Translations under genes and position numbers: made by a program
Part shown: positions 532-26,664 of the stretch, in pieces
Layout of the letters: every line of letters begins with the position of its first letter
How positions within the stretch are numbered: position 1 is the stretch's first letter
IMG/VR virus record: IMGVR_UViG_2541047725_000010
Direction: 5' to 3' (one strand)
From: a virus
Taxonomy: Duplodnaviria > Heunggongvirae > Uroviricota > Caudoviricetes
Length of the DNA: 41,240 nt
The notes under the pieces: model-generated
Seen by the model: only the letters and a program-made list of their open reading frames with translations
Databases searched by the model: none
Told to the model about the DNA's origin: nothing

Positions 532-1071
532 ATGAAGAAAGTTTTTCTTTGCGCCATCTTAGCTTCCTTAAGCTATCCGGCTATCGCCTCATCATTGCAG
601 GATCAACTCTCTGCTGTCGCAGAAGCGGAACAGCAAGGTAAAAATGAAGAGCAAAGGCAGCATGACGAATGGGTCGCGGAGCGCAACAGGGAAATCCAGC
701 AAGAGAAGCAACGTCGCGCAAACGCCCAGGCCGCCGCTAACAAAAGAGCGACAACGGCAGCGGCAAATAAGAAAGCTCGTCAGGATAAACTGGACGCCGA
801 AGCCTCTGCGGACAAAAAACGCGATCAAAGTTATCAAGATGAGCTACGCAGCTTAGAGATTCAGAAACAAAAACTGGCGCTGGCGAAAGAAGAAGCCCGC
901 GTTAAGCGAGAAAACGAATTTATCGATCAGGAACTGAAGCACAAAGCTGCGCAAACCGATGTGGTGCAATCTGAAGCTGACGCAAACAGGAATATGACTG
1001 AGGGCGGTCGAGATCTGATGAAAAGCGTGGGCAAAGCAGAAGAGAACAAATCGGACAGCTGGTTTAATTAA
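532..1071 (+). CDS. Secreted Lys/Glu/Ala-rich coiled-coil protein, function unknown
   Basis: ORF track 179 aa; Sec-type signal peptide (MKKVFLCAILASLSYPAIAS); GGAGG RBS at 522-526; low-complexity charged repeats. Confidence 0.6.
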   Translation: MKKVFLCAILASLSYPAIASSLQDQLSAVAEAEQQGKNEEQRQHDEWVAERNREIQQEKQRRANAQAAANKRATTAAANKKARQDKLDAEASADKKRDQSYQDELRSLEIQKQKLALAKEEARVKRENEFIDQELKHKAAQTDVVQSEADANRNMTEGGRDLMKSVGKAEENKSDSWFN

Positions 1072-1267: not shown

Positions 1268-1765
1268 TCAGTGCCACGATTTTTGCTTCTTCAGTGAATC
1301 GTATTGCTGTTCGCAGGATTCTCCTGCAATCCGATACTTTTCAGCCTCAGCTGCTGTTGCGTTGTAAACTCGATTGCTTTCTTCAAGCATGTCGGCGAGC
1401 ACACCGATGACCTTGCTGGCTGGCGTGCCAGTGGGGAAAGATCCGGTATAGTGTTCGGCGAGTCGCTTGGTTTTGTCAAGCTCGGCGCGCAGGCTGTCAG
1501 CAGCGGCATTAGCATGCTCAGCATCAACACGCGCCACATCGATACGGGATTGTGCTTCACGTTCAATTTGTGTTTTCTCCTGATCACGTTGTGACCTGGC
1601 CTTATCATCAGCCTGTTTCTGATCTTCCTGTGCCTGCGCATACCCGGCATCGTACTGGCGGCTGCCGTGCATATTCCAGGCAACCACTCCGACGATGAAC
1701 AGAGCAGCAAGCATCAACACGATAAGCAACTGTTTCCAGTATGCTTTTACGAATGCCCAGATCAT
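1268..1765 (-). CDS. Rz-like inner-membrane spanin (i-spanin)
   Basis: 165 aa; N-terminal transmembrane anchor then charged coiled coil; directly downstream of endolysin with ATGA start/stop overlap; contains an embedded +1-frame lipoprotein ORF. Confidence 0.6.
1291..1539 (-). CDS. Rz1-like outer-membrane lipoprotein spanin (o-spanin) embedded in Rz
   Basis: Alternate frame wholly inside Rz; start chosen at ATG 1539 giving [17 protein letters not shown] (lipobox LTAC) followed by a Pro-rich mature region; exact start uncertain. Confidence 0.45.
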   Translation of the reverse strand: MWRVLMLSMLMPLLTACAPSLTKPSDSPNTIPDLSPLARQPARSSVCSPTCLKKAIEFTTQQQLRLKSIGLQENPANSNTIH

Positions 1766-2391
1766 ACCGCCAGCACATTACTGGCAGTGATGTACCGCGC
1801 TCTCCGGTCGTCGATGCCGTTCCTGCCACCATTGATAATCAAAGTTACACGAGCAATATCGCCGGTATACTTCATGCAACCTTTGCTGGAGAAGAACCAC
1901 GCCGCGCTACGAGCCGCATATTCGTCCTGCGCTAACAGTTCAGGATTCTCCAGCAGGTCCACTTTCAGGCCGTTTCCGCAGTCACGATAGTTATTCAAAC
2001 CGGTAATCTGGATAAGTCCACGGCCTCGGTAATTCCAGCCGTCACCAGGGGAATTGTTCCCCATGCGTTTGCTGTACACCAGATTGGCGATCGCTCGCTG
2101 GCGCTCGAGTGGCAATGGTGGTTCACCAGCACGGCGACCCAGTGCATTAGCCTGCCCCTGAGTGAGACGCCCAGCCCGAACGAAGTTAGCCAGACCGCTG
2201 ACACTGTAGTTGAAATTCTCCTGCAATCTGGTGAAGCCCACAGATTCATGCCCGACCTGAGCAATAAACATTGCCTGATCCTCTGCTTTGCTGATACCAA
2301 ACTCTTTCATCGCAGAAGTTATATGCGAGAACCAGCGAGCGGCCAGCGCCTCTCTAATACCAGCAGCTCGCTGGAATTGTTTAATCTCCAT
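1762..2391 (-). CDS. Endolysin, glycoside hydrolase family 19 (chitinase-like lysozyme)
   Basis: 209 aa; motifs [12 protein letters not shown] and [12 protein letters not shown] match GH19 signature blocks (from memory); sits between holin-like genes and Rz. Confidence 0.8.
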
Positions 2392-2689
2392 GTTTAGACC
2401 TCGTTATTTTGAAAATCTGAACGACGTTACCGCGCGTTTTAATAACCGCAGCAAGCATGACAGCGTTGATAATGACCTCAGATAAATCCACAGCCATTGG
2501 CGTGCGTAACCAGATTGCATAAACGACACGAACAGGAATACTGGCCGCAGCAACAATCAGGAAATAAGCAATCCACCCACCCCATCTTCGGTGTTGAGAT
2601 CCGTTACGCTGGAAAGTGACAACGCGAATTGCTATGCCAGTACAAATAACTGCATTGGTGATAAGTAAAAACAGGTCATGCGTTACCAT
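2381..2689 (-). CDS. Holin/antiholin-like small membrane protein
   Basis: 102 aa, three hydrophobic segments and a charged C-terminus; overlaps endolysin start. Confidence 0.5.
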
Positions 2690-3092
2690 CGTCTTTTCTC
2701 CCCGGAATTAACTCGCGTGGATTATCGGAACGGTGATAGAGCCAGATACCAATTCGCACTGCGACAATTGCTGATACGAATGCGCCAGCAGAGAAAACAA
2801 TCCCTTTCTCGAACGAGTCCTGCGTGATGGTAGGGATCAGGCTGGCTATGCCGATAAGAATTGATGCTGCTGGTTTGTAAAAAAGAAGGCCGCAGAGAAA
2901 GCTGAGCATCGACAAGAATACGCGACGACGAATTGGATACTCTACCGCAGAGGTAACAAAAATTACCGCACCAGCAAGAGCACCGAGCGCCACCTCTGGC
3001 GGAACACCTACGATAACCGCAGCAAGAGAGCTCACACTAAGCCATTGATTTAAAGACTCAGTTGTTATGTTAACCGACATAGCACACACCAT
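2676..3092 (-). CDS. Holin-like membrane protein
   Basis: 138 aa, 3-4 predicted TM helices, charged C-terminal tail; first gene of the lysis cassette. Confidence 0.5.
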   Translation of the reverse strand: MVCAMSVNITTESLNQWLSVSSLAAVIVGVPPEVALGALAGAVIFVTSAVEYPIRRRVFLSMLSFLCGLLFYKPAASILIGIASLIPTITQDSFEKGIVFSAGAFVSAIVAVRIGIWLYHRSDNPRELIPGRKDDGNA

Positions 3093-3255
3093 TTTTTTTG
3101 TACATATCGAACCTCTTCACTTACAGGTCACCAAACACAATAAACCATATATGTTTAACCATCAGATATTCTGAAATAACTATCAATTCATTGGTTTTTG
3201 ATGACAATATTCATAAACAACCATAAATGTAAGGATGTTTATTAGTTGCCAAAAT

Positions 3256-5862
3256 TTATTTCCTGCAAACTCCAGATGATGTTAATCCATCAAAAATAAC
3301 CTGCACTCTGGCAATAACAACATCAACTCCAGAAGTCGTTTCACTTGCATAACCAAGTTTTATTTTAGATACAATATCCTGAGTAAGTTCAGATATTTCA
3401 GTTTCTGCAATGTTACCAGAGGCCATGTGATTATCGTATGCCATAGAATGAATTCCATTATTGACATCGATTGAACTAGTATGTTTGTGAAAAATAGATG
3501 GGTTTACCTGAAACGAATTTGAACCGATAAGATCAGAAGATACTCCATTCATCACTGCAGTACAGCGTGGAATATTATTATCGGTTATTGTCATATGCAG
3601 ACGGTTACCAGTTAACCCCTCACCAAGTGTGACATAATACGCCAATTCTCCACCTGCATATTGTTTCCCCTCAACAATAACAGTAATCCCTCTTAATTTC
3701 TGATTAGCTAGCAAAAACTTATTACTGTCTATATAGCATTTATTTGCGGAACCAAAAACAGCCCCTTCTAAAATATCTGATGAATAGGAATAAATAAGGT
3801 CACCAGAAACAAAGGAAAGAATATCAGATACGTTTCCTTTTTTAGATAAGTTGGGAGAATAGCTATTAACTATTTCATATTGTCCTGTGATAAAATCAAG
3901 GTAAACGCCATCAGTTTTCATCTCTTTAAAGAAAATGCTATTAAAGCATCCATCAAGAACCGGTGGATATATTCTAGAGCTTGCATAAGCTGTTGGGTGA
4001 TTCTTATTATTACCACTACCAGGCGAATAAACATCTTCGTTAGTCATTGACTTTTTAAGCTTAACAGGAATCATCGGCTGCATATCAATTTTGCAGTTCC
4101 CTGAACCACCGATGCGAGGATAAAATAAACCACCAAACCTTACAATATTACTACTGAATAGTATTTCGTTATCGTTAAGTGTTATCTCAACGAAGTTTCC
4201 AATAAGTTTAAATTCAACTGAAAACAAACCAAGTGGAGCAGATAATTTAACAATATTGCGCATAAAAACACCTACAGTCCCTGTTGATGCAGTATAGTGT
4301 GTGGTTTCAAAGGCAGAGCCTGTATATTTCAAGTTAATGAAATTATTATGGTATGAAGACAATTGGAATTGAATCCCAGAACTAAGGATTTCAATATCTA
4401 CAAATTGAATCCTTACGGAGTAAGAATATGATAAATCTTCATATTCATAAGGCAATGTAACATCTTTTGAAATAGTTGCCCTCACATAATTACCAGAAAC
4501 CACATCAACCCCATCACGTACTGCATTAAAGTAACGATTAAAATCAATAAGCCCAGCGCCAACATACTGCGCATATGAACGAGTCCATCCTGCCATTGCG
4601 TTTCGTCCATTCTGAGCTTCTAAACTGCTAAATTCAGAGTCACTTGTGGTACTTGATGGGAGGATATTTGTACAAAAAACAATTTCAGGCATTGAAGTAA
4701 TATCATTCAGTTCAGCCATCAATTTAAAAAAAGTTTTCTGCGGGAAGTTACCAACATCCCAACCATCTCCGTCATTCATGCCAAAAGCAATAATAACAAC
4801 ATCAGGGTTAATATCACGAATGTAATCAATCCAGCGTCTGTTCGTGTCTGAATACCATGGGTACTGTGAGTTATAAGAAGTAATTGCTGGTGTATCTTTT
4901 CCAAGGTCATAGTACCTCATTCCACCAATTGCTCTGTTAAATAAAGTAGAACTTGGGAATTTCTCTTGCAAAACTCTCTTAAGATGAGCGGCAAAAATGC
5001 TTGATCGATCCACTGTGCTTATATTATATGGGGCACTTAAGCTGTCACCAACTAACACTATTTTTGAGTTAGGCCTTGATAATCTCTCAAGTGTTTTAGA
5101 TGTGACTAAACTGCAGGAATTAATGAACTGAGTACTATTTAGCGTCTGTTCAAGTGTATCACCAAATCTGGTACCAACGTATGATGATCCGTTGACACTT
5201 GCTAGCTTAAGGCATAAATCAGCAGTATCTGTAATTGAAAAAATAGGAACAGGACGTCCTAAACTGTCATACCCCTGAATTGAGTTTGCCCTAGAAGATG
5301 CTGATGCCATTTCGCTTACTATCTCAGGGAAGCGGAGTGTTTTAGATATGTTGCTGTTAATAACTCCTTTGATAGATGAGTCTGTATATTTCTTCGTGGA
5401 AGCGTCCTGAGGAAATAATGGATCATCAAGGTTACGAATACGATTGCCGAGTGCATCGTAGTAAGTGGCACTAAATGATGGTTTACGAAGAGCCAGCCGA
5501 GCCATGCTTTTGACTAACTGGATCAGCATCGTTAGCTTATCAAAAGCATCCTCATGCACTTCCGCAAAGAACTTACCCTGATTGCGCAGATCAGTTTCCT
5601 GTGTAACCGGTAGCTCTCGTGATATAGAAATCTTATAGCCATTGGCCAACGCCTTCGACAATATTACATTTCCACCATTGTATCCTCCGGCCCCGGTAAC
5701 TATATAATCAGTATCAAGAGTCAGTACGGTGATATTTTCATGAATATCAACAACCTGCACAATCAAATCAGATTTATTGAAAACCCTAAAGGCATACGGA
5801 AACGATGTCGTAACGCCGTTACCGGTGTATTCGTTGTGGTCAACTTCGGTTGAGACCGTCAT
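3256..5862 (-). CDS. Tailspike / receptor-binding protein with internal GDSL/SGNH esterase domain
   Basis: 868 aa; conserved N-terminal anchor MTVSTEVDHNEYTGNGVTTSFPY; SGNH blocks VLVGDSLS (about 5040-5065), NRAIGG, FGMNDGDG (about 4761-4787); GGAG RBS; distal part visibly AT-richer. Confidence 0.8.
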   Translation of the reverse strand: MTVSTEVDHNEYTGNGVTTSFPYAFRVFNKSDLIVQVVDIHENITVLTLDTDYIVTGAGGYNGGNVILSKALANGYKISISRELPVTQETDLRNQGKFFAEVHEDAFDKLTMLIQLVKSMARLALRKPSFSATYYDALGNRIRNLDDPLFPQDASTKKYTDSSIKGVINSNISKTLRFPEIVSEMASASSRANSIQGYDSLGRPVPIFSITDTADLCLKLASVNGSSYVGTRFGDTLEQTLNSTQFINSCSLVTSKTLERLSRPNSKIVLVGDSLSAPYNISTVDRSSIFAAHLKRVLQEKFPSSTLFNRAIGGMRYYDLGKDTPAITSYNSQYPWYSDTNRRWIDYIRDINPDVVIIAFGMNDGDGWDVGNFPQKTFFKLMAELNDITSMPEIVFCTNILPSSTTSDSEFSSLEAQNGRNAMAGWTRSYAQYVGAGLIDFNRYFNAVRDGVDVVSGNYVRATISKDVTLPYEYEDLSYSYSVRIQFVDIEILSSGIQFQLSSYHNNFINLKYTGSAFETTHYTASTGTVGVFMRNIVKLSAPLGLFSVEFKLIGNFVEITLNDNEILFSSNIVRFGGLFYPRIGGSGNCKIDMQPMIPVKLKKSMTNEDVYSPGSGNNKNHPTAYASSRIYPPVLDGCFNSIFFKEMKTDGVYLDFITGQYEIVNSYSPNLSKKGNVSDILSFVSGDLIYSYSSDILEGAVFGSANKCYIDSNKFLLANQKLRGITVIVEGKQYAGGELAYYVTLGEGLTGNRLHMTITDNNIPRCTAVMNGVSSDLIGSNSFQVNPSIFHKHTSSIDVNNGIHSMAYDNHMASGNIAETEISELTQDIVSKIKLGYASETTSGVDVVIARVQVIFDGLTSSGVCRK

Positions 5863-6038: not shown

Positions 6039-6057
6039 ATTGCATGGAGAAGATAAG

Positions 6058-6315
6058 ATGCAGCGGTATCACTATCCACTGGAAGACGGATTTACCGAAA
6101 GGATTCACACGCCGGGAGGCGTCAGGTCACTGGTGGAGGGATCGCACTTGATGAAATTACTCCGGGATCTCGATAAGGATGGATTTAATGTCGATGGCCC
6201 ACTTGCCGAACTGACTGCACTGATTAACTACGTCACCAGCTCACAGATGTCTATGCGGGATCTGCAAACACATCTCGACTATTGTGCCGAACAATTACGA
6301 AAACAAACCAGATAA
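6058..6315 (+). CDS. Small protein paralogous to the antirepressor C-terminal domain (SOS-controlled)
   Basis: 85 aa from ATG 6058 (track ORF 6040-6315); aligns by eye at about 50% identity with residues about 160-240 of the adjacent antirepressor (e.g. LMKLLRDLDKDGFNVDGPLAELT vs LMNLLNQLQEDGHDVSGAAAELT). Confidence 0.6.
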   Translation: MQRYHYPLEDGFTERIHTPGGVRSLVEGSHLMKLLRDLDKDGFNVDGPLAELTALINYVTSSQMSMRDLQTHLDYCAEQLRKQTR

Positions 6316-6475: not shown

Positions 6476-6629
6476 ATGTGTAAAGCGCACCTATTCTATG
6501 GTGGGCTGTGTGGGGGCACCGAAAGGTGCGCCGGGTTCCTTTGTAGCCGGTAAGACCAACTCTGCACAGTTCACCACCATCTGATTGGTCTCAGCGGTGG
6601 TGATTAACCTAACTACAAAGGTGATCGCC

Positions 6630-7322
6630 ATGAATACCAAACCTTCCATCTTTTCCTTTGAGTCATCCTGCCAGATCCGTATGTTCATGATTGACGGAGA
6701 ACCTTGGTTTGTCACCAAAGATGTGTGCAATGCTTTGAATATTGATGTTACACAAGCGAGAAAACTTGATAAAAAAGGCTGGAACAAAAAGGGGCTGTAT
6801 TCAATACAGACCCCTGGTGGAATACAAGAACTATCCATCGTTTCAGAATCAGGTCTCTACATCCTTATTCTGCGTTGCAAAGAGGCAATGACTGAGGGAA
6901 CGAGAGCATTCAGATTTCTTGAATGGGTTACAGGCGAGGTTCTTCCTCAGATCCGCCGCACCGGAAGTTACATTAAAAACTCGCTACCGCAGGAAGAACG
7001 CATAAAGATGGTTGCCGACCAGGTAGCCAACGCCACGGCGTCAGCAGTAATGCAGGCGATGAAGATAGAGAACAAAACCTACAACGCCCCGCTGAAGCCC
7101 GGCTACCGCAGCCTGATTCATTCCCCGTCTGGTGTTCTCGGCCTGACGGAGAACTCACTGCTGATGAATCTGCTGAACCAGTTACAGGAAGACGGGCACG
7201 ACGTATCGGGCGCGGCGGCGGAGCTGACCACCATGTTCTGCTACATCGTCGGTGTGAGCAAATGCCTGCGTGATATCCAGACGCACGCGGAGTACATCAA
7301 CGACAAAGCAGGGTTCTTCTGA
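6630..7322 (+). CDS. Phage antirepressor, BRO-N N-terminal domain with KilA-C/Ant-type C-terminal domain
   Basis: 230 aa from ATG 6630 (AAGGTG RBS); N-terminal FSFESSCQIRMFMIDGEPWFVTKDVCNALNI is a BRO-N signature (from memory). Confidence 0.75.
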   Translation: MNTKPSIFSFESSCQIRMFMIDGEPWFVTKDVCNALNIDVTQARKLDKKGWNKKGLYSIQTPGGIQELSIVSESGLYILILRCKEAMTEGTRAFRFLEWVTGEVLPQIRRTGSYIKNSLPQEERIKMVADQVANATASAVMQAMKIENKTYNAPLKPGYRSLIHSPSGVLGLTENSLLMNLLNQLQEDGHDVSGAAAELTTMFCYIVGVSKCLRDIQTHAEYINDKAGFF

Positions 7323-7451: not shown

Positions 7452-7778
7452 ATGACAAAACTTGGATTCGTGATGAGAGGTCCGGTAAGAAGCGGAACTC
7501 ATGCAAAGCGTAGCAAGAGTCGTATTTTTACTGGTAAGGTTGTAGCACGTAAATCAGCTATTGGCTCGTTCAATAGTGAAAATGCGGCATTGCGCCATAT
7601 TTTTATCAGCACAAAGCCAAGAGCATCCGCTGATGTGCATACAATGACTATTCCTATCACAAAGAATATAAAGCGGATAAAAAAGCTCTCATCTGCAGAA
7701 TCAAAAGAGATATCTTTCCGCCAGCTTAACTCATTAGAAACGCATATGAAGGAAGAGGAATTCGATGTTTTTGAGTGA
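7452..7778 (+). CDS. Basic hypothetical protein, upstream partner of a toxin-like gene
   Basis: 108 aa; strong GGAG RBS; Lys/Arg-rich N-terminus; no family recognised; 14-bp overlap with the next gene. Confidence 0.5.
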   Translation: MTKLGFVMRGPVRSGTHAKRSKSRIFTGKVVARKSAIGSFNSENAALRHIFISTKPRASADVHTMTIPITKNIKRIKKLSSAESKEISFRQLNSLETHMKEEEFDVFE

Positions 7779-8277
7779 GTATAGCGGGAAGGTTATACCT
7801 ACTGGTGAGTTTAAAACTGATGACTTTCTGATTTCGCTAAAAGATGCTTTTAAACAACACTGGCGTCATGGTCATCATCCTGATCTGGGAAAAGATACTC
7901 TTTTTGAAAGACCAGACGAAGTATTAGGTTTCCATCTCAGAAAGGTTCATGTCAATATTGGTGAATATGCATCATATTCATACTCATGTACTGAACAGTG
8001 TTGGGATGAGTGGTCATATGGATTGATTGATGAACAAGGAAATTACAGGCCAAAACCAACCAGTAACGCATATCTCATATATGCAGTCAATGAAATAAGA
8101 GATGCAGCCTTACTAGCTTATTGGGACCCGCCCGCACACACCAAAGCTAACGCAAAAGTTTGGATGGATTCCGTATTGAATTTCACAAAATTATTTCATG
8201 AACGAACGAATACAGCTCCACTTAGTAGAAATGTTTATCCGTGGGATTATTCGTACAAATCCAAAAAGCCTGCATAG
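7765..8277 (+). CDS. YafO-like toxin-family protein (putative ribosome-dependent mRNA interferase)
   Basis: 170 aa; AAGGAAGAGG RBS inside the upstream gene; by-eye similarity to E. coli YafO recalled from memory (G[KR]D-x-L[FY], RKVHVNI vs ERVAHIHL, AYLIYAV vs AHLVYCQ); unverified. Confidence 0.45.
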   Translation: MFLSEYSGKVIPTGEFKTDDFLISLKDAFKQHWRHGHHPDLGKDTLFERPDEVLGFHLRKVHVNIGEYASYSYSCTEQCWDEWSYGLIDEQGNYRPKPTSNAYLIYAVNEIRDAALLAYWDPPAHTKANAKVWMDSVLNFTKLFHERTNTAPLSRNVYPWDYSYKSKKPA

Positions 8278-8358
8278 TAGTTTTTTATGGACGAAACAAA
8301 AGTCAGTGCTACACTCATTGACGCCACATTGAGGTGGATTATAGATGGAAATTTCACA

Positions 8359-8520
8359 ATGAAAAAAGCATTTGCTGCACTGTTCGTTTTGTTGTCTCTG
8401 GTAGCTTCAACTCAGGCCTTTGCCGGTCGTTGTCAGCACGACAGCGATACTGCCGCTGACGGCTCCCGCTGCGGTGGGCGTTCTGCGGATTCCCGCCCGG
8501 GCGGCGGTGGCATTCGTTAA
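8359..8520 (+). CDS. Small secreted Cys-containing peptide
   Basis: 53 aa from ATG 8359 (track ORF starts 8287); Sec signal MKKAFAALFVLLSLVASTQAFA then a Gly/Arg/Asp-rich mature peptide of about 31 aa with two Cys. Confidence 0.4.
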   Translation: MKKAFAALFVLLSLVASTQAFAGRCQHDSDTAADGSRCGGRSADSRPGGGGIR

Positions 8521-8525
8521 AAACA

Positions 8526-8543
8526 AGGCCGCGAAAGCGGCCT
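8526..8543 (-). terminator. Intrinsic terminator downstream of the minus-strand gene 8552-8848
   Basis: 7-bp GC stem AGGCCGC-gaaa-GCGGCCT; on the minus strand followed by TGTTTTT; the GTGACATGTCAC palindrome lies immediately beside it. Confidence 0.6.
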
Positions 8544-8555
8544 GTGACATGTCAC
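8544..8555. repeat. 12-bp perfect palindrome GTGACATGTCAC, copy 1
   Basis: Overlaps the TGA stop of gene 8552-8848; identical copy at 28897-28908. Confidence 0.6.
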
Positions 8556-8848
8556 GTCCCTTTTCTGAATGATAGCCATTCGAAAAATGATGACATTCCA
8601 CCGCAGACAATAGCAAAGATGATCCCACCAAAGAAGAGAAGGCCAGCCTGCCACCACTCCCACCGCCATACATCCACAGCGCCAACCATACCAACAATCG
8701 CTCCAACAAATGGAATATAGCTCACGATGAAAGCAATGGGGGCTGCAATTATCCAGTGCAATCCCCACCATGATTCAAGCCCAGCCATAATTGCTGCCAA
8801 CTGAAAAAGACCAACGACGATATAAACAATGAATCCTATAGCTTGCAT
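8552..8848 (-). CDS. Small integral membrane protein
   Basis: 98 aa, three hydrophobic helices, Trp-rich; follows the last internal virion protein gene. Confidence 0.55.
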   Translation of the reverse strand: MQAIGFIVYIVVGLFQLAAIMAGLESWWGLHWIIAAPIAFIVSYIPFVGAIVGMVGAVDVWRWEWWQAGLLFFGGIIFAIVCGGMSSFFEWLSFRKGT

Positions 8849-8860
8849 GTAGTCACCTAT

Positions 8861-9034
8861 TTACCCAGTAAAAATAAGAGGCCTCCCCTCAATAAGGCTT
8901 GCAACAAGAACTACTCCCTGCACAACAAAGATGAACCAGCAAATAGCTTGAGTCTGAGGGTTAAGAAAATATTTGTAGCGGTCAATAAATAACAATCCAC
9001 CAGAAATTATCACACTCAAAATAATTAAAAACAC
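8861..9034 (-). CDS. Possible small membrane protein (below ORF-track threshold, GTG start)
   Basis: 58 codons found by hand, almost wholly hydrophobic; no clear RBS; coordinates may be off by a base or two. Confidence 0.25.
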   Translation of the reverse strand: MFLIILSVIISGGLLFIDRYKYFLNPQTQAICWFIFVVQGVVLVASLIEGRPLIFTG

Positions 9035-9043
9035 AACACTTCC

Positions 9044-11518
9044 TTATTGCGGAGTGACATCCTGAGGTCGCCACCAGTATGTCTGGTTAAACTCTTTCTT
9101 CGAACGTTGCTCCATTTTACGCAAATAGCCTAGTGAAAAATACTCCTGCATCTGATTAAAGATCATGTGATCGAGAGCCGCCTTCAAGTACCAGAGATTC
9201 GCACCTGGCATCAAACCTTTCCCCAGCTTCACCAGATCACCACCAGTCTGCTCACTCTTCCCTTCCACAGCATTTAACGGTATGCCCTGAGCAATCTTCA
9301 CTACGTCATCAACCAGACCAGCTACCGGGCCAAGCATCGACGCCAGCGCGCCGCTTCCGTACCTAGTGTGATCTGACAATAAAAAGTCACCATAAAGGCC
9401 AAGACCACCACCTTTCAGTAGAGCACCAAGCCAGAATTTTGCGGCATCTTCTCCTGTCATCTCTCGAGGATTACGACCAGACGCAAGGTCGTTAAGTTGT
9501 TGCGACAAAGCGCCAAGAATGGTCGTACTGGCAATAAACGTCGCAATATATGCCGCACGCCCACCAGCAGACGGCATACCCATAGCGCGTGACCAGTGAC
9601 GCATAACAACCGAGATAGGGAACGATTTAAACAGGAAAACACTTCTCGTTAATTCACCTTTCCATGTTCCACGCTGAATACCAGAACCGGTTATCAGTTG
9701 CTCACGTGCTCCCGGTGTAATAACAGCCATATCAACTTCTTCAGTTACGGCACCGAGCAGTTTACGCATTGCCTCAAATTTCACGCGTTCAGGCTCACCA
9801 AGATGTTTAACTGCTGAATCAGGGATACGCATAATGCTTTCCGGTGTCAGCATCGTATTATTACCGTTCCCCCAGTCCTCCTGTTGCGCCAGCTTCCATA
9901 CGCTCCAGTCTGTGTCAGTAATCCCTTTGCTTTTCAGGATACGAAAATCAGAGTCATCGAGGCTACGAAGGTCTGGTGTTCGTGACACTACTTCTCCCAG
10001 GCTTCCCATCATGGTTACGCCATAGGCGCGCTTGTGCGCATCTGACCATGCTGTAAGCCCACTGGCACGCATTACCGCCGTTGCCGCCCAACGAGACACT
10101 GACGGCCCCATATTATCCATCGCCCAGCGGTTAACGCTGCCAAGTAGAGATTCCATCGCCAGACCAGCGCGGCGCGCCCGCGCAAGTTCTGTACGGTTCG
10201 TTGGGTCCATAGCTTCAAGCTGGTTGCGGAATAACTGGTTCATTGGAAGGTTGGTAACCTTCGCAGACAGATACATGGTTCCAAGATCAGAGAACGATGA
10301 CAGCAACGCGGATCCGAGTCTGCTGGCAACCAGCCAGTTGCGGATATTGTCAGACCATCGCGCGATGTGCGGATTCGCTACAGGCTGTGTCTTTCCGGAA
10401 ATAAAGTTGTACAGATTCTCTGTGTTGTTCGCTAGCCGCTCGACTTTACCGGTTTTACTCGGGTTAGCGGTTGCCGTTTCTGCCTTCACCTGATCAAGAA
10501 GAGAGCGGAAAACATGATCGGGGTTTGGGCCATATGTTTCCACCAGTGCAATATCTTTACTGATACCTTCCAGGTGACCGACCATGATTTCCCATAGAGA
10601 GCGATCGCCATAAAGTTGCTGATATTGCAGATAGGAATCTGCATCTTTGAAATGTATCTGTCGTGATGCATTACCACGGTTAGCACGTGCGCCGGAAATT
10701 CGCATTCCGGTATCAGTAAGCTTATTCAGCCCACCAGTAGCGATCGTGTTATAAGCCTCTCCAAGAAATGCAGACAACTCGGCATCGTTCATCAGTTGTC
10801 CATCGGCTCGGATATAATATTTGCGATCCAGCTTACCTATAACATCGCTAACCCACTTATCCTTTGATACCGCCCCAACCTTTTCCATAGAATGATGTTG
10901 AGGGATCCCCCAGTTTTCGAGATAGCCAATGTCCCCACCAGCATCATTAAACCGGCGGCGCAGCAGCTCTGTAACTTCTCTCCACGCCTTAGCACCTTTT
11001 CTTGCTTTAGCATTGCCAGTATTTTGCCCCCGCATTTCATATACCAAGTCACGTACGCCCGCTTCATCTTCAAACAGACCAAAAAAGCGAGGATCAACTG
11101 CTTCGAATGCCTCCTGCAATTGACTCAATGCATAATCACGGGTGGCTTTTGTTCTGGATTCAACAGAGAGGAAATTAGATTTACCGTCTGCATTAAAAGC
11201 TATAGTACGGTTAAGAGCGCCAAGTTTCCCATCAGCCCCTTGATAGCTATTGATAAATTTATCCAATCTCTGACGCGCGGCTATAGTGAGAGCCACACGA
11301 CGTTTCTTTAATGCCGCTTCTCGCTGTAATTCTTCAGATGCCAATTGTGCTGCTCGATATAGCCGCTCTGATTCGGAAAGTTGTCGCCACGACATCGGGT
11401 CATCACGAGCAATGGAGCGCATATTTCGATAAATGCGGTCTTCAATGTTCTGTATTTCTCGCGCCGTTAACGTGCGCTGCGCCGCCTGCTGGACCGCTTG
11501 TATACATTCCTGTCTCAT
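9044..11518 (-). CDS. Large virion internal/ejection protein (T7 gp16-like position)
   Basis: 824 aa; GAGAGG RBS; last of the large proteins following the tail-tube genes. Confidence 0.55.
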   Translation of the reverse strand: MRQECIQAVQQAAQRTLTAREIQNIEDRIYRNMRSIARDDPMSWRQLSESERLYRAAQLASEELQREAALKKRRVALTIAARQRLDKFINSYQGADGKLGALNRTIAFNADGKSNFLSVESRTKATRDYALSQLQEAFEAVDPRFFGLFEDEAGVRDLVYEMRGQNTGNAKARKGAKAWREVTELLRRRFNDAGGDIGYLENWGIPQHHSMEKVGAVSKDKWVSDVIGKLDRKYYIRADGQLMNDAELSAFLGEAYNTIATGGLNKLTDTGMRISGARANRGNASRQIHFKDADSYLQYQQLYGDRSLWEIMVGHLEGISKDIALVETYGPNPDHVFRSLLDQVKAETATANPSKTGKVERLANNTENLYNFISGKTQPVANPHIARWSDNIRNWLVASRLGSALLSSFSDLGTMYLSAKVTNLPMNQLFRNQLEAMDPTNRTELARARRAGLAMESLLGSVNRWAMDNMGPSVSRWAATAVMRASGLTAWSDAHKRAYGVTMMGSLGEVVSRTPDLRSLDDSDFRILKSKGITDTDWSVWKLAQQEDWGNGNNTMLTPESIMRIPDSAVKHLGEPERVKFEAMRKLLGAVTEEVDMAVITPGAREQLITGSGIQRGTWKGELTRSVFLFKSFPISVVMRHWSRAMGMPSAGGRAAYIATFIASTTILGALSQQLNDLASGRNPREMTGEDAAKFWLGALLKGGGLGLYGDFLLSDHTRYGSGALASMLGPVAGLVDDVVKIAQGIPLNAVEGKSEQTGGDLVKLGKGLMPGANLWYLKAALDHMIFNQMQEYFSLGYLRKMEQRSKKEFNQTYWWRPQDVTPQ

Positions 11519-11523
11519 TTAAT

Positions 11524-13326
11524 TTAACCTCTCAAGAAACACGCCACAGCGACATCAAACAGGCTGGAATCCTGTATTGCCTGCTCACTTTCCCTGTTCG
11601 CTTCATCCAGTACTTCACGCGCGCTGCGCGATTGTGGATTACCATCATCATCCAGCACGGTGATTATCATGTCAGGTGATTCAAGCAGCGAGTCTTCAGC
11701 TATGCGCAGATCAATATCTCCTGCCTGATCTGACATCATTTTTTGTTCTGCCTGTTGCAATATTTTATCAGGCTCAAAAGGAGCTACTTCGTCTGGCGTC
11801 CTGACCTCTGCTGTTTTATAGAATGAAACAGCCTGAGCATTAAGTTCACTTTCTGCCTGCTGTCTCCGAGCCAGTTCTGCTAGAGCTTCAAAAAACTGAC
11901 CGCCAGGCTCGTGCGGTGCCAACGCGTTACGGGAAAATTCCAGGCGTTCTTGTGCCTGCCGGATTCGTTGATCAATATCGCGAAGTCTGGCCTGTTTATC
12001 TGATCGAGCACGAGACAAAGCTTTACCGCTACCGGTTGGCTCTTCTGCAAGAATTTGTGCACGCTGTTCAGTGAGATTTTCAATAATTCGTTGGCTATTA
12101 GCGATTTCCGACTGGTAAACCTGTCTATCGCCACGCGGCAAAAGCTGCGCGGCCTGTTCTTCAAGCAACCGATTTTCTATAGCGCGCGCCGTTACTCCAT
12201 CATCTACAGATGACAGAGCCTCATTAACTGCCTGAGACAGCAGACTCTTGCGCCCAGGAATTTCACTGAAAGATGCAGACTCAACAATGCTGGCAACGTC
12301 TACAGGTCTCCCCTGGCTAACATCAGACATGGCTTTTCGCAGAGCCTGAATGTGAGAATTGCGCGAAAGCACGTTGATCGGCACGCCGGGAGCAATATCA
12401 ATTTCAGCATGATGAGCGGCATTCGCCGCCAGTGCAGCATCGACATCAACTGGTGAAAAATTTGGTGCGCTTGTAGACTCGCCGCGAGAGTTAATAAATC
12501 TGCCGACACCACCAAACGCCACTCCAAGAACAGCATCAATAGCAATTGCCTGTCGATCCAACACATCATACTGATTAGCCATTTCGCTATAGCCACCATC
12601 ACGAAGCGTTTTTGCAGTAAGCCCACGCTGTGCCATACCGAACGCAATATTTGTACCTGCGGCATAGGCAATATCTGGCGTTGCACGTACTGCTGTTGCT
12701 GCGGCGCGTCGCACTGAACTTTCACCCGTCCGCGCAAGCTGAGCCGCCACACCTTCCGCCAGCGCACCACCAGCACGTAACCCGAGGCTCATAGGGATCA
12801 GTGTTCCGGCACCAGCAGTAATACCCTGCACTAATCCCGCTTCCTGCGCCGTCCTGAAATCAACACCCTGTGCTGTCAGCCGTTCAAACTCAGAAAAACC
12901 CTGTAGCGAAGTTACCGCCGCAGCACCTCCGACCGGACCACCGAGCGTTGTACCGACAACAGCCTGCCCGCCCATATCGAACAACCCATAAAGGACCTGC
13001 CCGGCGGTTCCGGTTGTCGCGGCATCAGGCGTCAGCCGCTTAACCTGCTGCTCTGCTAGTTTTCTCTGCTCAGCAATGTATGAAACTGAAGTGTCATTGA
13101 ACGAGGTGTTTTCGTTAACAAACTGAGCAATCGGGGATACGATTTTATCCATCCCTGCCCATAGCAACTGATCTGGCTTTGCCACCAGCCCGGAGTACAA
13201 ACCAGACAATGCCGCTCCTACAGCATTGTCGAAAAAACCAACATCGCTGTTAAATCCAGCTGGATTTGATGCAGCTTCGTCAAGCTGCTGATTCTGGTTT
13301 ACTGGATTAAGGCCAAAGTAACTCAT
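11524..13326 (-). CDS. Virion internal/ejection protein
   Basis: 600 aa, Gly/Ala-rich; ATGA overlap with the upstream gene. Confidence 0.55.
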   Translation of the reverse strand: MSYFGLNPVNQNQQLDEAASNPAGFNSDVGFFDNAVGAALSGLYSGLVAKPDQLLWAGMDKIVSPIAQFVNENTSFNDTSVSYIAEQRKLAEQQVKRLTPDAATTGTAGQVLYGLFDMGGQAVVGTTLGGPVGGAAAVTSLQGFSEFERLTAQGVDFRTAQEAGLVQGITAGAGTLIPMSLGLRAGGALAEGVAAQLARTGESSVRRAAATAVRATPDIAYAAGTNIAFGMAQRGLTAKTLRDGGYSEMANQYDVLDRQAIAIDAVLGVAFGGVGRFINSRGESTSAPNFSPVDVDAALAANAAHHAEIDIAPGVPINVLSRNSHIQALRKAMSDVSQGRPVDVASIVESASFSEIPGRKSLLSQAVNEALSSVDDGVTARAIENRLLEEQAAQLLPRGDRQVYQSEIANSQRIIENLTEQRAQILAEEPTGSGKALSRARSDKQARLRDIDQRIRQAQERLEFSRNALAPHEPGGQFFEALAELARRQQAESELNAQAVSFYKTAEVRTPDEVAPFEPDKILQQAEQKMMSDQAGDIDLRIAEDSLLESPDMIITVLDDDGNPQSRSAREVLDEANRESEQAIQDSSLFDVAVACFLRG

Positions 13327-25449: not shown

Positions 25450-25526
25450 GTGGCATTAGCTCAGTTGGACAGAGCAACCGCCTTCTAAGCGGTTGGTCGC
25501 AGGTTCGAATCCTGCATGCCACGCCA
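25450..25526 (+). tRNA. tRNA-Arg, anticodon UCU (phage-encoded)
   Basis: Hand-folded cloverleaf: 7-bp acceptor GTGGCAT/ATGCCAC, D-stem GCTC/GAGC, anticodon stem ACCGC/GCGGT with loop CTTCTAA, T-stem GCAGG/CCTGC with GGTTCGAATCC, discriminator G and encoded CCA. Confidence 0.85.
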
Positions 25527-25773: not shown

Positions 25774-26664
25774 ATGCTTGACTTCATCCGTGACATTTAC
25801 TCCTCTTTCCGCCAAGCATCTCTTGAGCGGGTGAAAAGCCCGTTCCTTGGGGCATTTGTTTTTTCCTGGCTTTGCTTTAATTGGCAGATGTTAGCAATTC
25901 TATTTTTTAGTTCTAAGGATATTGAAAAGCGCCTTGCTATTATTAATGGCTCTTTCGGCATCGTCAGCTTTTTAATTGCGCCAATATGCACTACAGCATT
26001 GATAGTTATCCTTTTACCGCAAATTAATAAATTGATTACAATAATACAAGATAAACCTAACTCAGACACAATTGAAATGAGCCTTGCATCTAAAATAAAG
26101 ATCGCCGAACTGCAGCAACTATTAGCAGAAAATGAAGCAAGAAAGAAACTTGCTGATAAAAAAGAAGAACGCTTCATTGAAGAGAATATTATTTCAATAA
26201 AAAAAGACCATGAAAAAGCAATAGATAACCTTAAAGACAAAGAAAGTAAAATCTCAAATCTCACGGACACAATAACTGAACTTCAGAGCAAACTGGTTAA
26301 AGCTGAGGCCACTCTCAAAGTTGAACAGGAGTCAAGATCCCAAGTGCAGAATGAATTGATTATTGAAAAAGAGAACAAGCGGAAATTAGAAGACAACATT
26401 CTGCACCTTAATTTAAGTTTAAAAAAAAACCAATCAGAATTGGCCATTGCAAAAGAAGCCTATGATAATACCTTGATGGCTTATAATGAACTTAACACAA
26501 CATTAAAAAAAGCAGAAAGCTCAATAATAAACTTCAATGCTAACTTTCCTTTTTTAACTGACATAAATAACAGCACCCCAAATACATACTTAAAAATAAA
26601 TAAAAATGCATGGGAGCATTTAGTTAGTTTAAATTTAAGTCTAAAGGAGAAAATACAAAAATAA
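25774..26664 (+). CDS. Membrane-anchored coiled-coil protein (cargo gene, function unknown)
   Basis: 296 aa; two N-terminal TM helices then about 200 aa of heptad-like Lys/Glu/Leu-rich sequence; very AT-rich; opposite strand to the flanking late genes. Confidence 0.6.
   Translation: MLDFIRDIYSSFRQASLERVKSPFLGAFVFSWLCFNWQMLAILFFSSKDIEKRLAIINGSFGIVSFLIAPICTTALIVILLPQINKLITIIQDKPNSDTIEMSLASKIKIAELQQLLAENEARKKLADKKEERFIEENIISIKKDHEKAIDNLKDKESKISNLTDTITELQSKLVKAEATLKVEQESRSQVQNELIIEKENKRKLEDNILHLNLSLKKNQSELAIAKEAYDNTLMAYNELNTTLKKAESSIINFNANFPFLTDINNSTPNTYLKINKNAWEHLVSLNLSLKEKIQK

Follow-up and report, generated by a model that had tools for sequence, protein, structure and literature searches.

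The morons of temperate phages (for instance, bor and lom of lambda and gp15 of HK97) are small envelope proteins whose genes interrupt runs of conserved late genes or close operons; phages that are otherwise identical may have or lack them, and their GC content deviates. One of them, HK97 gp15, acts in exclusion from the inner membrane, where it blocks the entry of DNA. SieA of P22, an inner-membrane protein of 162 to 164 amino acids (aa) with three transmembrane (TM) helices, has its gene between those for ejection protein gp16 (gene 16) and the tailspike (gene 9); SieA prevents injection of DNA, escape mutants map to the ejection proteins gp16 and gp20, and several very divergent SieA types exist (PMC10883804). 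The P22 sieA gene runs toward gene 16 in convergent orientation, from a promoter of its own. Here, we analyzed three small genes, for proteins of 57, 98, and 53 aa, in a viral sequence of 41,240 nucleotides (nt) (IMG/VR record IMGVR_UViG_2541047725_000010; this whole stretch is referred to as the window), which is a Uetakevirus (epsilon15/phiV10-like) prophage of Escherichia coli. Like sieA, the 57- and 98-aa genes have the last ejection-protein gene of a temperate podovirus on one side and its tailspike gene on the other, and the 98-aa product resembles SieA in being a small protein with three predicted TM helices. The three genes make up two separate, unrelated units of phage accessory cargo with a terminator in common, new members of an ordinary and already known kind of element. 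Near-identical phages gain and lose them by exchange, and no characterized family is homologous to them; all three products are predicted to be envelope targeted. The locus comprises the following features.

8281-8358, plus strand: upstream part of the 53-aa module, with a candidate promoter made of TGGACG (8288-8293), 16 nt, and TGcTACACT (8307-8315)
8359-8520, plus strand: 53-aa pre-peptide (phrog_14503), with a predicted signal peptide, an AFA/G cleavage motif, and a mature peptide of ~31 aa (CQHDSDTAADGSRCGGRSADSRPGG...) containing two invariant Cys
8526-8543, no strand assigned: GC-rich hairpin terminator common to two convergent transcription units, a 7-bp GC stem followed by UUGUUUUU on the minus strand
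8552-8848, minus strand: 98-aa protein (phrog_3075), three predicted TM helices, second cargo position, Shine-Dalgarno (SD) sequence AGGTGA
8861-9034, minus strand: 57-aa protein, two predicted TM helices, GTG start, first cargo position, SD sequence AAGGAAG
9044-11518, minus strand: gene of the last internal-core/ejection-type virion protein, 824 aa (phrog_684, "virion structural protein," E = 0)

Three open reading frames (ORFs) had been proposed here by a sequence-only reading; all of them are present and are genes under purifying selection, the product of 8861-9034 having 57 rather than 58 residues. Region 8281-9100 is 99.0 to 99.6% identical to Escherichia phages HEMP4, phiv142-3 (Uetakevirus), and Phi05_2388 B and 78% identical at the nucleotide level to Klebsiella phage BUCT711. 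Compared with BUCT711, the 98-aa ORF has 44 synonymous and 8 nonsynonymous changes (ratio of nonsynonymous to synonymous rates [dN/dS] of 0.022), the 53-aa ORF has 27 and 12 (0.052), and the 57-aa ORF has 18 and 16 (0.186); for the last, dN/dS values of 0.16 and 0.27 were obtained against two further, more distant relatives. In a collection of 5.8 billion proteins clustered at the 90% identity level, the families of the 98-, 53-, and 57-aa ORFs comprise 52, 57, and 13 clusters, respectively. Overlapping ORFs at 8407-8709 and 8517-8771 (minus strand) and a 47-aa ORF antisense to the 53-aa gene were rejected as spurious, since it is the 98- and 53-aa frames that are under selection. Pfam and NCBIfam scans of the three proteins gave nothing above threshold.

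The late virion operon runs on the minus strand and has three large internal-core genes (862, 600, and 824 aa) at its end. The GTG start of the 57-aa gene is located 9 nt past the stop of the 824-aa core gene, the start of the 98-aa gene is located 12 nt past the 57-aa stop, and both have good SD sequences (TAAGGAAGTGTTGTG and AGGTGACTACATG); the two genes form the SD-coupled tail of the operon, which ends at a strong terminator. That terminator, noticed already from the letters alone, is the hairpin at 8526-8543 (–16.5 kcal/mol; z = –3.3), whose U-tract is found on the minus (late-operon) strand only; the 53-aa gene enters the hairpin from the plus side, where the U-tract is missing. The same hairpin stands behind different cassettes in phiV10 and BUCT711, and a one-base variant of it stands behind the cassette of locus L015. 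The 824-aa core protein is 99% identical to phiV10 gp20 and 31% identical to its homologue gp17 of epsilon15.

We then surveyed what lies directly behind the core gene in 80 IMG/VR loci whose 824-aa protein is 84 to 100% identical over a full-length match (78 of them usable), with reference phages added. Eleven architectures were found among the 78 loci.

57-aa protein + 98-aa protein: 32 of 78 loci
46-aa 2-TM protein (phiV10 gp21 type): 21 of 78
137-aa lipoprotein: 10 of 78
41-aa TM protein + 131-aa lipoprotein: 5 of 78
103-aa TM protein + 98-aa protein: 3 of 78
131-aa lipoprotein alone: 2 of 78
102-aa secreted protein: 1 of 78
102-aa secreted protein + 98-aa protein: 1 of 78
57-aa protein + 92-aa 2-TM protein: 1 of 78
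128-aa multi-TM protein: 1 of 78
115-aa secreted repeat protein: 1 of 78

Eleven arrangements of unrelated proteins in near-identical phages make this slot a cargo hot spot. Its occupants are all membrane, lipoprotein, or signal-peptide proteins, their families are mutually unrelated, and none of these families has a known function. The slot has constant boundaries, namely, the 3' end of the core gene and the GGCCGC...GCGGCC hairpin, and these two flanks probably serve as recombination anchors. The 57- and 98-aa genes are themselves separable: the former also occurs with the 92-aa protein or with a lipoprotein of the 131-aa type, and the latter also occurs behind the 102- or 103-aa proteins or alone. 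Short 2-TM proteins likewise stand between the last core gene and the terminator in phiV10 (gp21, 46 aa, just after the core gene) and in epsilon15 (gp18, 64 aa, overlapping the core gene by 4 nt), but the 57-aa family is homologous to neither; since gp21 and gp18 are uncharacterized, they add a position and no function. The presence or absence of the genes among near-identical phages and the deviating GC content of two of them (36.8% for the 57-aa gene and 58.0% for the 53-aa gene versus 48.5% for the window) recall the morons. Unlike in morons, an independent promoter is plausible for the 53-aa module only; the 57/98 pair seems to ride on the late transcript. The 98-aa gene, at 46.5% GC, does not deviate from the window.

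The 57-aa gene is an overlooked conserved small gene. Its family (13 clusters, 56 to 58 aa, 67 to 98% identity) follows the core gene by 9 to 12 nt in every locus that has it, and a conserved loop, DRYKYFL, joins the two hydrophobic helices of the protein. It has no PHROG match, it carries no annotation in the RefSeq NZ_CP033884, phiv142-3, and BUCT711 records, and it is absent in the Cronobacter and Salmonella relatives examined. The phiv142-3 record annotates a 118-aa ORF instead, which is caused by a 1-nt difference upstream of the 98-aa gene. A hairpin in the 3' end of the 57-aa ORF (8868-8900) was no better than shuffled sequence (z = –0.01) and was dropped.

The 98-aa protein matches phrog_3075 over its full length in hidden Markov model (HMM) comparison (E = 1.6e-54). 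Its family alignment shows invariant residues G13, Q16, P46, G53, G56, and W63 and a conserved GxxxGxxG motif (glycine zipper). An AlphaFold2 model built with this alignment has a predicted local distance difference test (pLDDT) score of 90.9 and helices at residues 2 to 28, 32 to 42, 46 to 59, and 65 to 97; among the three hydrophobic segments, the middle one is kinked at the invariant Pro46. Because the C-terminal tail is basic (R/K-rich family-wide), the C terminus is probably cytoplasmic, which would place the Trp-rich loop DVWRWEWWQ in the periplasm. A profile search with the family returned 749 clusters at an E value of ≤1e-3, and by this similarity the domain belongs to a large unnamed membrane-domain superfamily that has no Pfam family; a sequence search of the PDB with the same profile found nothing (E = 6.5). 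One metagenomic protein of 427 aa (P0129) contains three or four tandem copies of the domain, which hints that it works as an oligomer.

The family is mobile cargo and not a part of the virion module. At every Enterobacterales locus examined, the 98-aa gene is located behind ejection-protein genes; in Cronobacter and Salmonella prophages, a homologue with 52 to 60% identity directly follows the core gene, whose product is only 25 to 27% identical. More distant members stand alone, with upstream regions of 180 to 350 nt, and a recombinase gene adjoins them in two of three loci (L099 and L102): one is located by a tyrosine-integrase gene, and the other belongs to an element that interrupts a Mg-chelatase-like gene and has a serine recombinase next to it. 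In the third (L101), the distant member is found in an island with Abi_2 and AlpA genes. A conserved protein of ~106 to 133 aa with the motif GELAATSY.QG and no Pfam family follows the 98-aa-family gene in L099 (6378-6698) and L102 (3782-4532), and a DUF6804 membrane protein is encoded between the two in L102; the 98-aa-family gene and the GELAATSY.QG protein may constitute a conserved multi-gene module. Apart from DUF6804, no Pfam family was found among the neighbors of the distant homologues.

The 53-aa gene is a separate mobile module. The sequence-only reading had grouped it with the membrane genes in one cluster beside the tailspike; its description as a secreted, Cys-containing product agrees with the predicted signal peptide and the two invariant Cys residues. 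By sequence, the product is a soluble peptide rather than a hydrophobic protein, and its gene is the last of a plus-strand block, separate from the membrane pair. The protein matches phrog_14503 over its full length (HMM E = 2.3e-40), and cleavage of the signal peptide would occur at AFA/G. From Escherichia to Pectobacterium/Dickeya, the signal peptide is variable and the mature sequence C-Q-H-D-x-D-T-A-A-D-G-S-R-C-G-G-R-S-A-D-S-R-P-G-G is nearly invariant, a pattern suggestive of a particular partner in the periplasm. In a bolder and rather doubtful reading, this secreted 31-aa sequence from the end of the antirepressor (Bro-N) block would serve there as a signal or effector whose target in the host is conserved. 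The AlphaFold2 model has low confidence over the mature part (pLDDT, 43 to 61), and an Excalibur-like, Ca-binding reading of the DxDxxxDGxxC loop was set aside, as it had no HMM support.

The block 8281-8556 (upstream region, gene, and hairpin) is 98.6 to 98.9% identical to TL-2011b and EC.W1-9, with different flanks. The gene is the last of a Bro-N/antirepressor block in the Uetakevirus window, in TL-2011b (next to Arc/Ant), in two Klebsiella phages, and in another type of E. coli podovirus, and in Pectobacterium it is found in a prophage of a different type. Among 5,426 complete E. coli genomes, 422 contain the 53-aa module and 144 contain the whole three-gene cluster. The hexamers of the candidate promoter are conserved over five aligned contexts. 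Just upstream of the module, TL-2011b has an inverted repeat that is GC rich, is followed by a T-run, and was read as a terminator; together, these features make a promoter of its own plausible for the 53-aa gene. A consensus scan made no call at the hexamers, and a hairpin upstream of the gene was dropped (z = –0.9) despite one compensatory change in Pectobacterium.

These genes are very probably nonstructural accessory envelope cargo, and diversifying envelope cargo beside DNA-delivery genes makes phage-phage competition its most plausible use. The 57- and 98-aa products, inner-membrane proteins with two and three predicted TM helices, would be made from the last part of the late virion transcript, and the 53-aa module would export a disulfide-looped peptide of ~31 aa to the periplasm; the cargo would then act on the envelope of the infected or lysogenic cell and exclude competing phages. 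Like P22 SieA or T4 Imm, the membrane pair might act at the inner membrane and disturb the assembly of the trans-envelope conduit through which an incoming phage delivers its DNA; the 53-aa peptide would act in the periplasm. Superinfection exclusion at DNA entry is the leading candidate for their function, which we propose tentatively, at somewhat below an even chance.

Several results weigh against exclusion at DNA entry. The promoter scan found none for the 57- or 98-aa gene, and the gaps in front of them are 9 and 12 nt, so that late lytic rather than prophage expression of the pair is the default; P22 sieA, in contrast, is convergent with the late genes and has its own promoter, whereas the 57/98 pair runs in the direction of the late operon and lacks an evident one. 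There is no sequence homology to SieA (hhalign probability of 0.2% with the 98-aa family profile). The 98-aa domain is widespread beyond phages, and fusions to DUF805 and RDD membrane domains are seen, which makes a general membrane function possible. A PADLOC scan of the three proteins gave no match, and nothing relevant was found in the literature on these proteins, on Uetakevirus exclusion, or on "transmembrane anchored protein." A further difference from SieA is that, by inspection, its FxRYPxEAxxFNK motif is absent from all three proteins. The DUF805 and RDD fusions and the cluster names of the 98-aa domain gave no functional clue.

A bolder version, in which the slot is a dedicated, fast-swapping "anti-entry" locus, each unrelated cassette blocks the DNA conduit of rival podoviruses in a different way, and the 98-aa domain is oligomeric, as its tandem-repeat relatives and its glycine zipper would suggest, seems rather doubtful. 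If it were true, the 98-aa protein would be the founding characterized member of the unnamed superfamily; if entry is indeed blocked, a dozen or more unstudied exclusion factors that act at the envelope would be gathered in this one slot. Carrier prophages occur in roughly 3 to 8% of complete E. coli genomes and also in Klebsiella, Salmonella, Cronobacter, and others, so that exclusion, if true, bears on phage-therapy host range. Apart from function, the analysis yields an overlooked 57-aa gene, a well-defined cargo hot spot, and an unnamed superfamily with a confident structural model.

Cargo that benefits the host is an alternative reading of the 98-aa protein and perhaps of the others, either as an orphan immunity protein against membrane-targeting bacteriocins or against type VI secretion system or contact-dependent inhibition toxins or as an envelope fitness factor. 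The immunity proteins of pore-forming colicins are inner-membrane proteins of about 100 to 180 aa with three or four TM helices, a shape that speaks for this reading, as do the spread of the superfamily outside phages and the stand-alone, recombinase-adjacent distant members that are followed by the ~106- to 133-aa protein. However, homology to any Pfam immunity family is lacking, no toxin gene adjoins the cluster in the window, and the constant place of the gene behind ejection-protein genes in Enterobacterales argues against it; we regard host benefit as unlikely.

Elsewhere in the window, the following features are located.

1268-3092: lysis cassette
3256-5862, minus strand: tailspike with a GDSL-esterase domain
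6040-6315, plus strand: gp19-like gene
6585-7322, plus strand: Bro-N gene
11524-13326, minus strand: internal-core gene, 600 aa
13323-15911, minus strand: internal-core gene, 862 aa

Alternatively, the 57- and 98-aa proteins could act late in the lytic cycle as holin/antiholin-like modulators of lysis timing or as membrane-permeabilizing, channel-like oligomers. The Pfam family Phage_holin_5_2 gave a score of 15.2 bits versus a gathering cut-off of 29.2 and matched only 4 of 29 family members, and the lysis cassette is ~5.5 kb away from the cluster, with no linkage to endolysin or spanin genes. Holin membership thus fails on score and on linkage, and a role in lysis looks improbable.

Modification of the O-antigen was a hypothesis of the sequence-only reading, which held that related phages encode small hydrophobic modifiers of O-antigen synthesis at this place. 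In the manner of epsilon15 gp22 and of Iap of phage D3, one of the proteins would then block an O-antigen enzyme of the host, Wzy polymerase or another, and so change the receptor of the tailspike. The 57-aa protein of this close relative of epsilon15 does resemble gp22 (alpha-polymerase inhibitor, 66 aa, two TM helices) in being small and hydrophobic with two predicted TM helices, and the phage does have an O-antigen-type tailspike, whose GDSL-esterase domain, as had been read, was found in the product of 3256-5862. Nevertheless, neither membrane protein is homologous to gp22 (hhalign probability of 0.15% with the 57-aa family and of 0.5% with the 98-aa family), and gp22 belongs to a different locus: together with the Wzy-like polymerase gp21, it is encoded past the tailspike, in the stretch that leads to the lysis genes, where the phiV10 oac and Cronobacter gtr genes are also located. 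In the window, this conversion site (3093-3255) is a 163-bp gap without a gene. No partner or replacement polymerase, Gtr, or Oac/acyltransferase gene was found among the ORFs tested, and the cassette is not tied to one tailspike, since both E. coli and Klebsiella phages have it and the tail fiber gene of phiv142-3 is shorter. O-antigen modification by these genes is therefore not supported, and we consider it very improbable; the expectation of O-antigen conversion genes at this slot is thereby corrected. The broader proposal of accessory envelope factors of a temperate phage, possibly exclusion factors, does agree with the results, in that the slot is filled only with envelope cargo and the 98- and 53-aa genes move independently between unrelated elements. 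The cluster is also not directly beside the tailspike, since 2.5 kb and four plus-strand genes separate them. At the position corresponding to 3093-3255, phiv142-3 has a 100-aa ORF.

An accessory role of the small membrane proteins in the virion or in ejection, in which they would be packaged or required during assembly and would aid insertion of the ejected core proteins into the inner membrane, is scarcely credible: they are the last genes of the virion operon, right after the three large core genes, and the first slot position holds a short 2-TM protein in most of the surveyed loci, but the slot contents are replaced by nonhomologous occupants between phages with core proteins that are 84 to 100% identical, which makes a structural role very unlikely, and, moreover, the slot of some phages holds a lipoprotein or secreted protein, members of the 98-aa family are also found where no virion genes are nearby, and the Cronobacter and Salmonella relatives do without the 57-aa gene.

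Around this accessory envelope cargo, the window contains further genes of note. The plus-strand block between the end of the late operon and the tailspike consists of the gp19-like and Bro-N genes, a 108-aa gene, and a YafO-like gene, followed by the 53-aa gene. The 108-aa (7452-7778) and 170-aa (7765-8277) genes, both on the plus strand, overlap by 14 nt and resemble a toxin-antitoxin pair; the 170-aa protein is a YafO-family toxin by its RefSeq name, with a weak Pfam match (E = 9.5e-4, below the cut-off), and the 108-aa protein, which belongs to no family, is a candidate antitoxin. In relatives, DUF2335 or HicA/DUF1902 is found in place of the pair, so that this cassette, too, is variable. 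Past the lysis cassette and on the opposite strand, two more candidate conversion genes are located at 1-516 and 532-1071 (plus strand); one encodes a 171-aa glycine-zipper protein with a subthreshold TraT-like match (28 versus 31 bits), and its partner encodes a DUF5384 protein. An insertion on the opposite strand between the portal and terminase genes contains tRNA-Arg(TCT) (25450-25526) and a gene for a 296-aa protein (25774-26664, plus strand). This protein, which had no Pfam match, combines N-terminal hydrophobic segments with a long, charged, Glu/Lys-rich stretch that reads as coiled coil-like.

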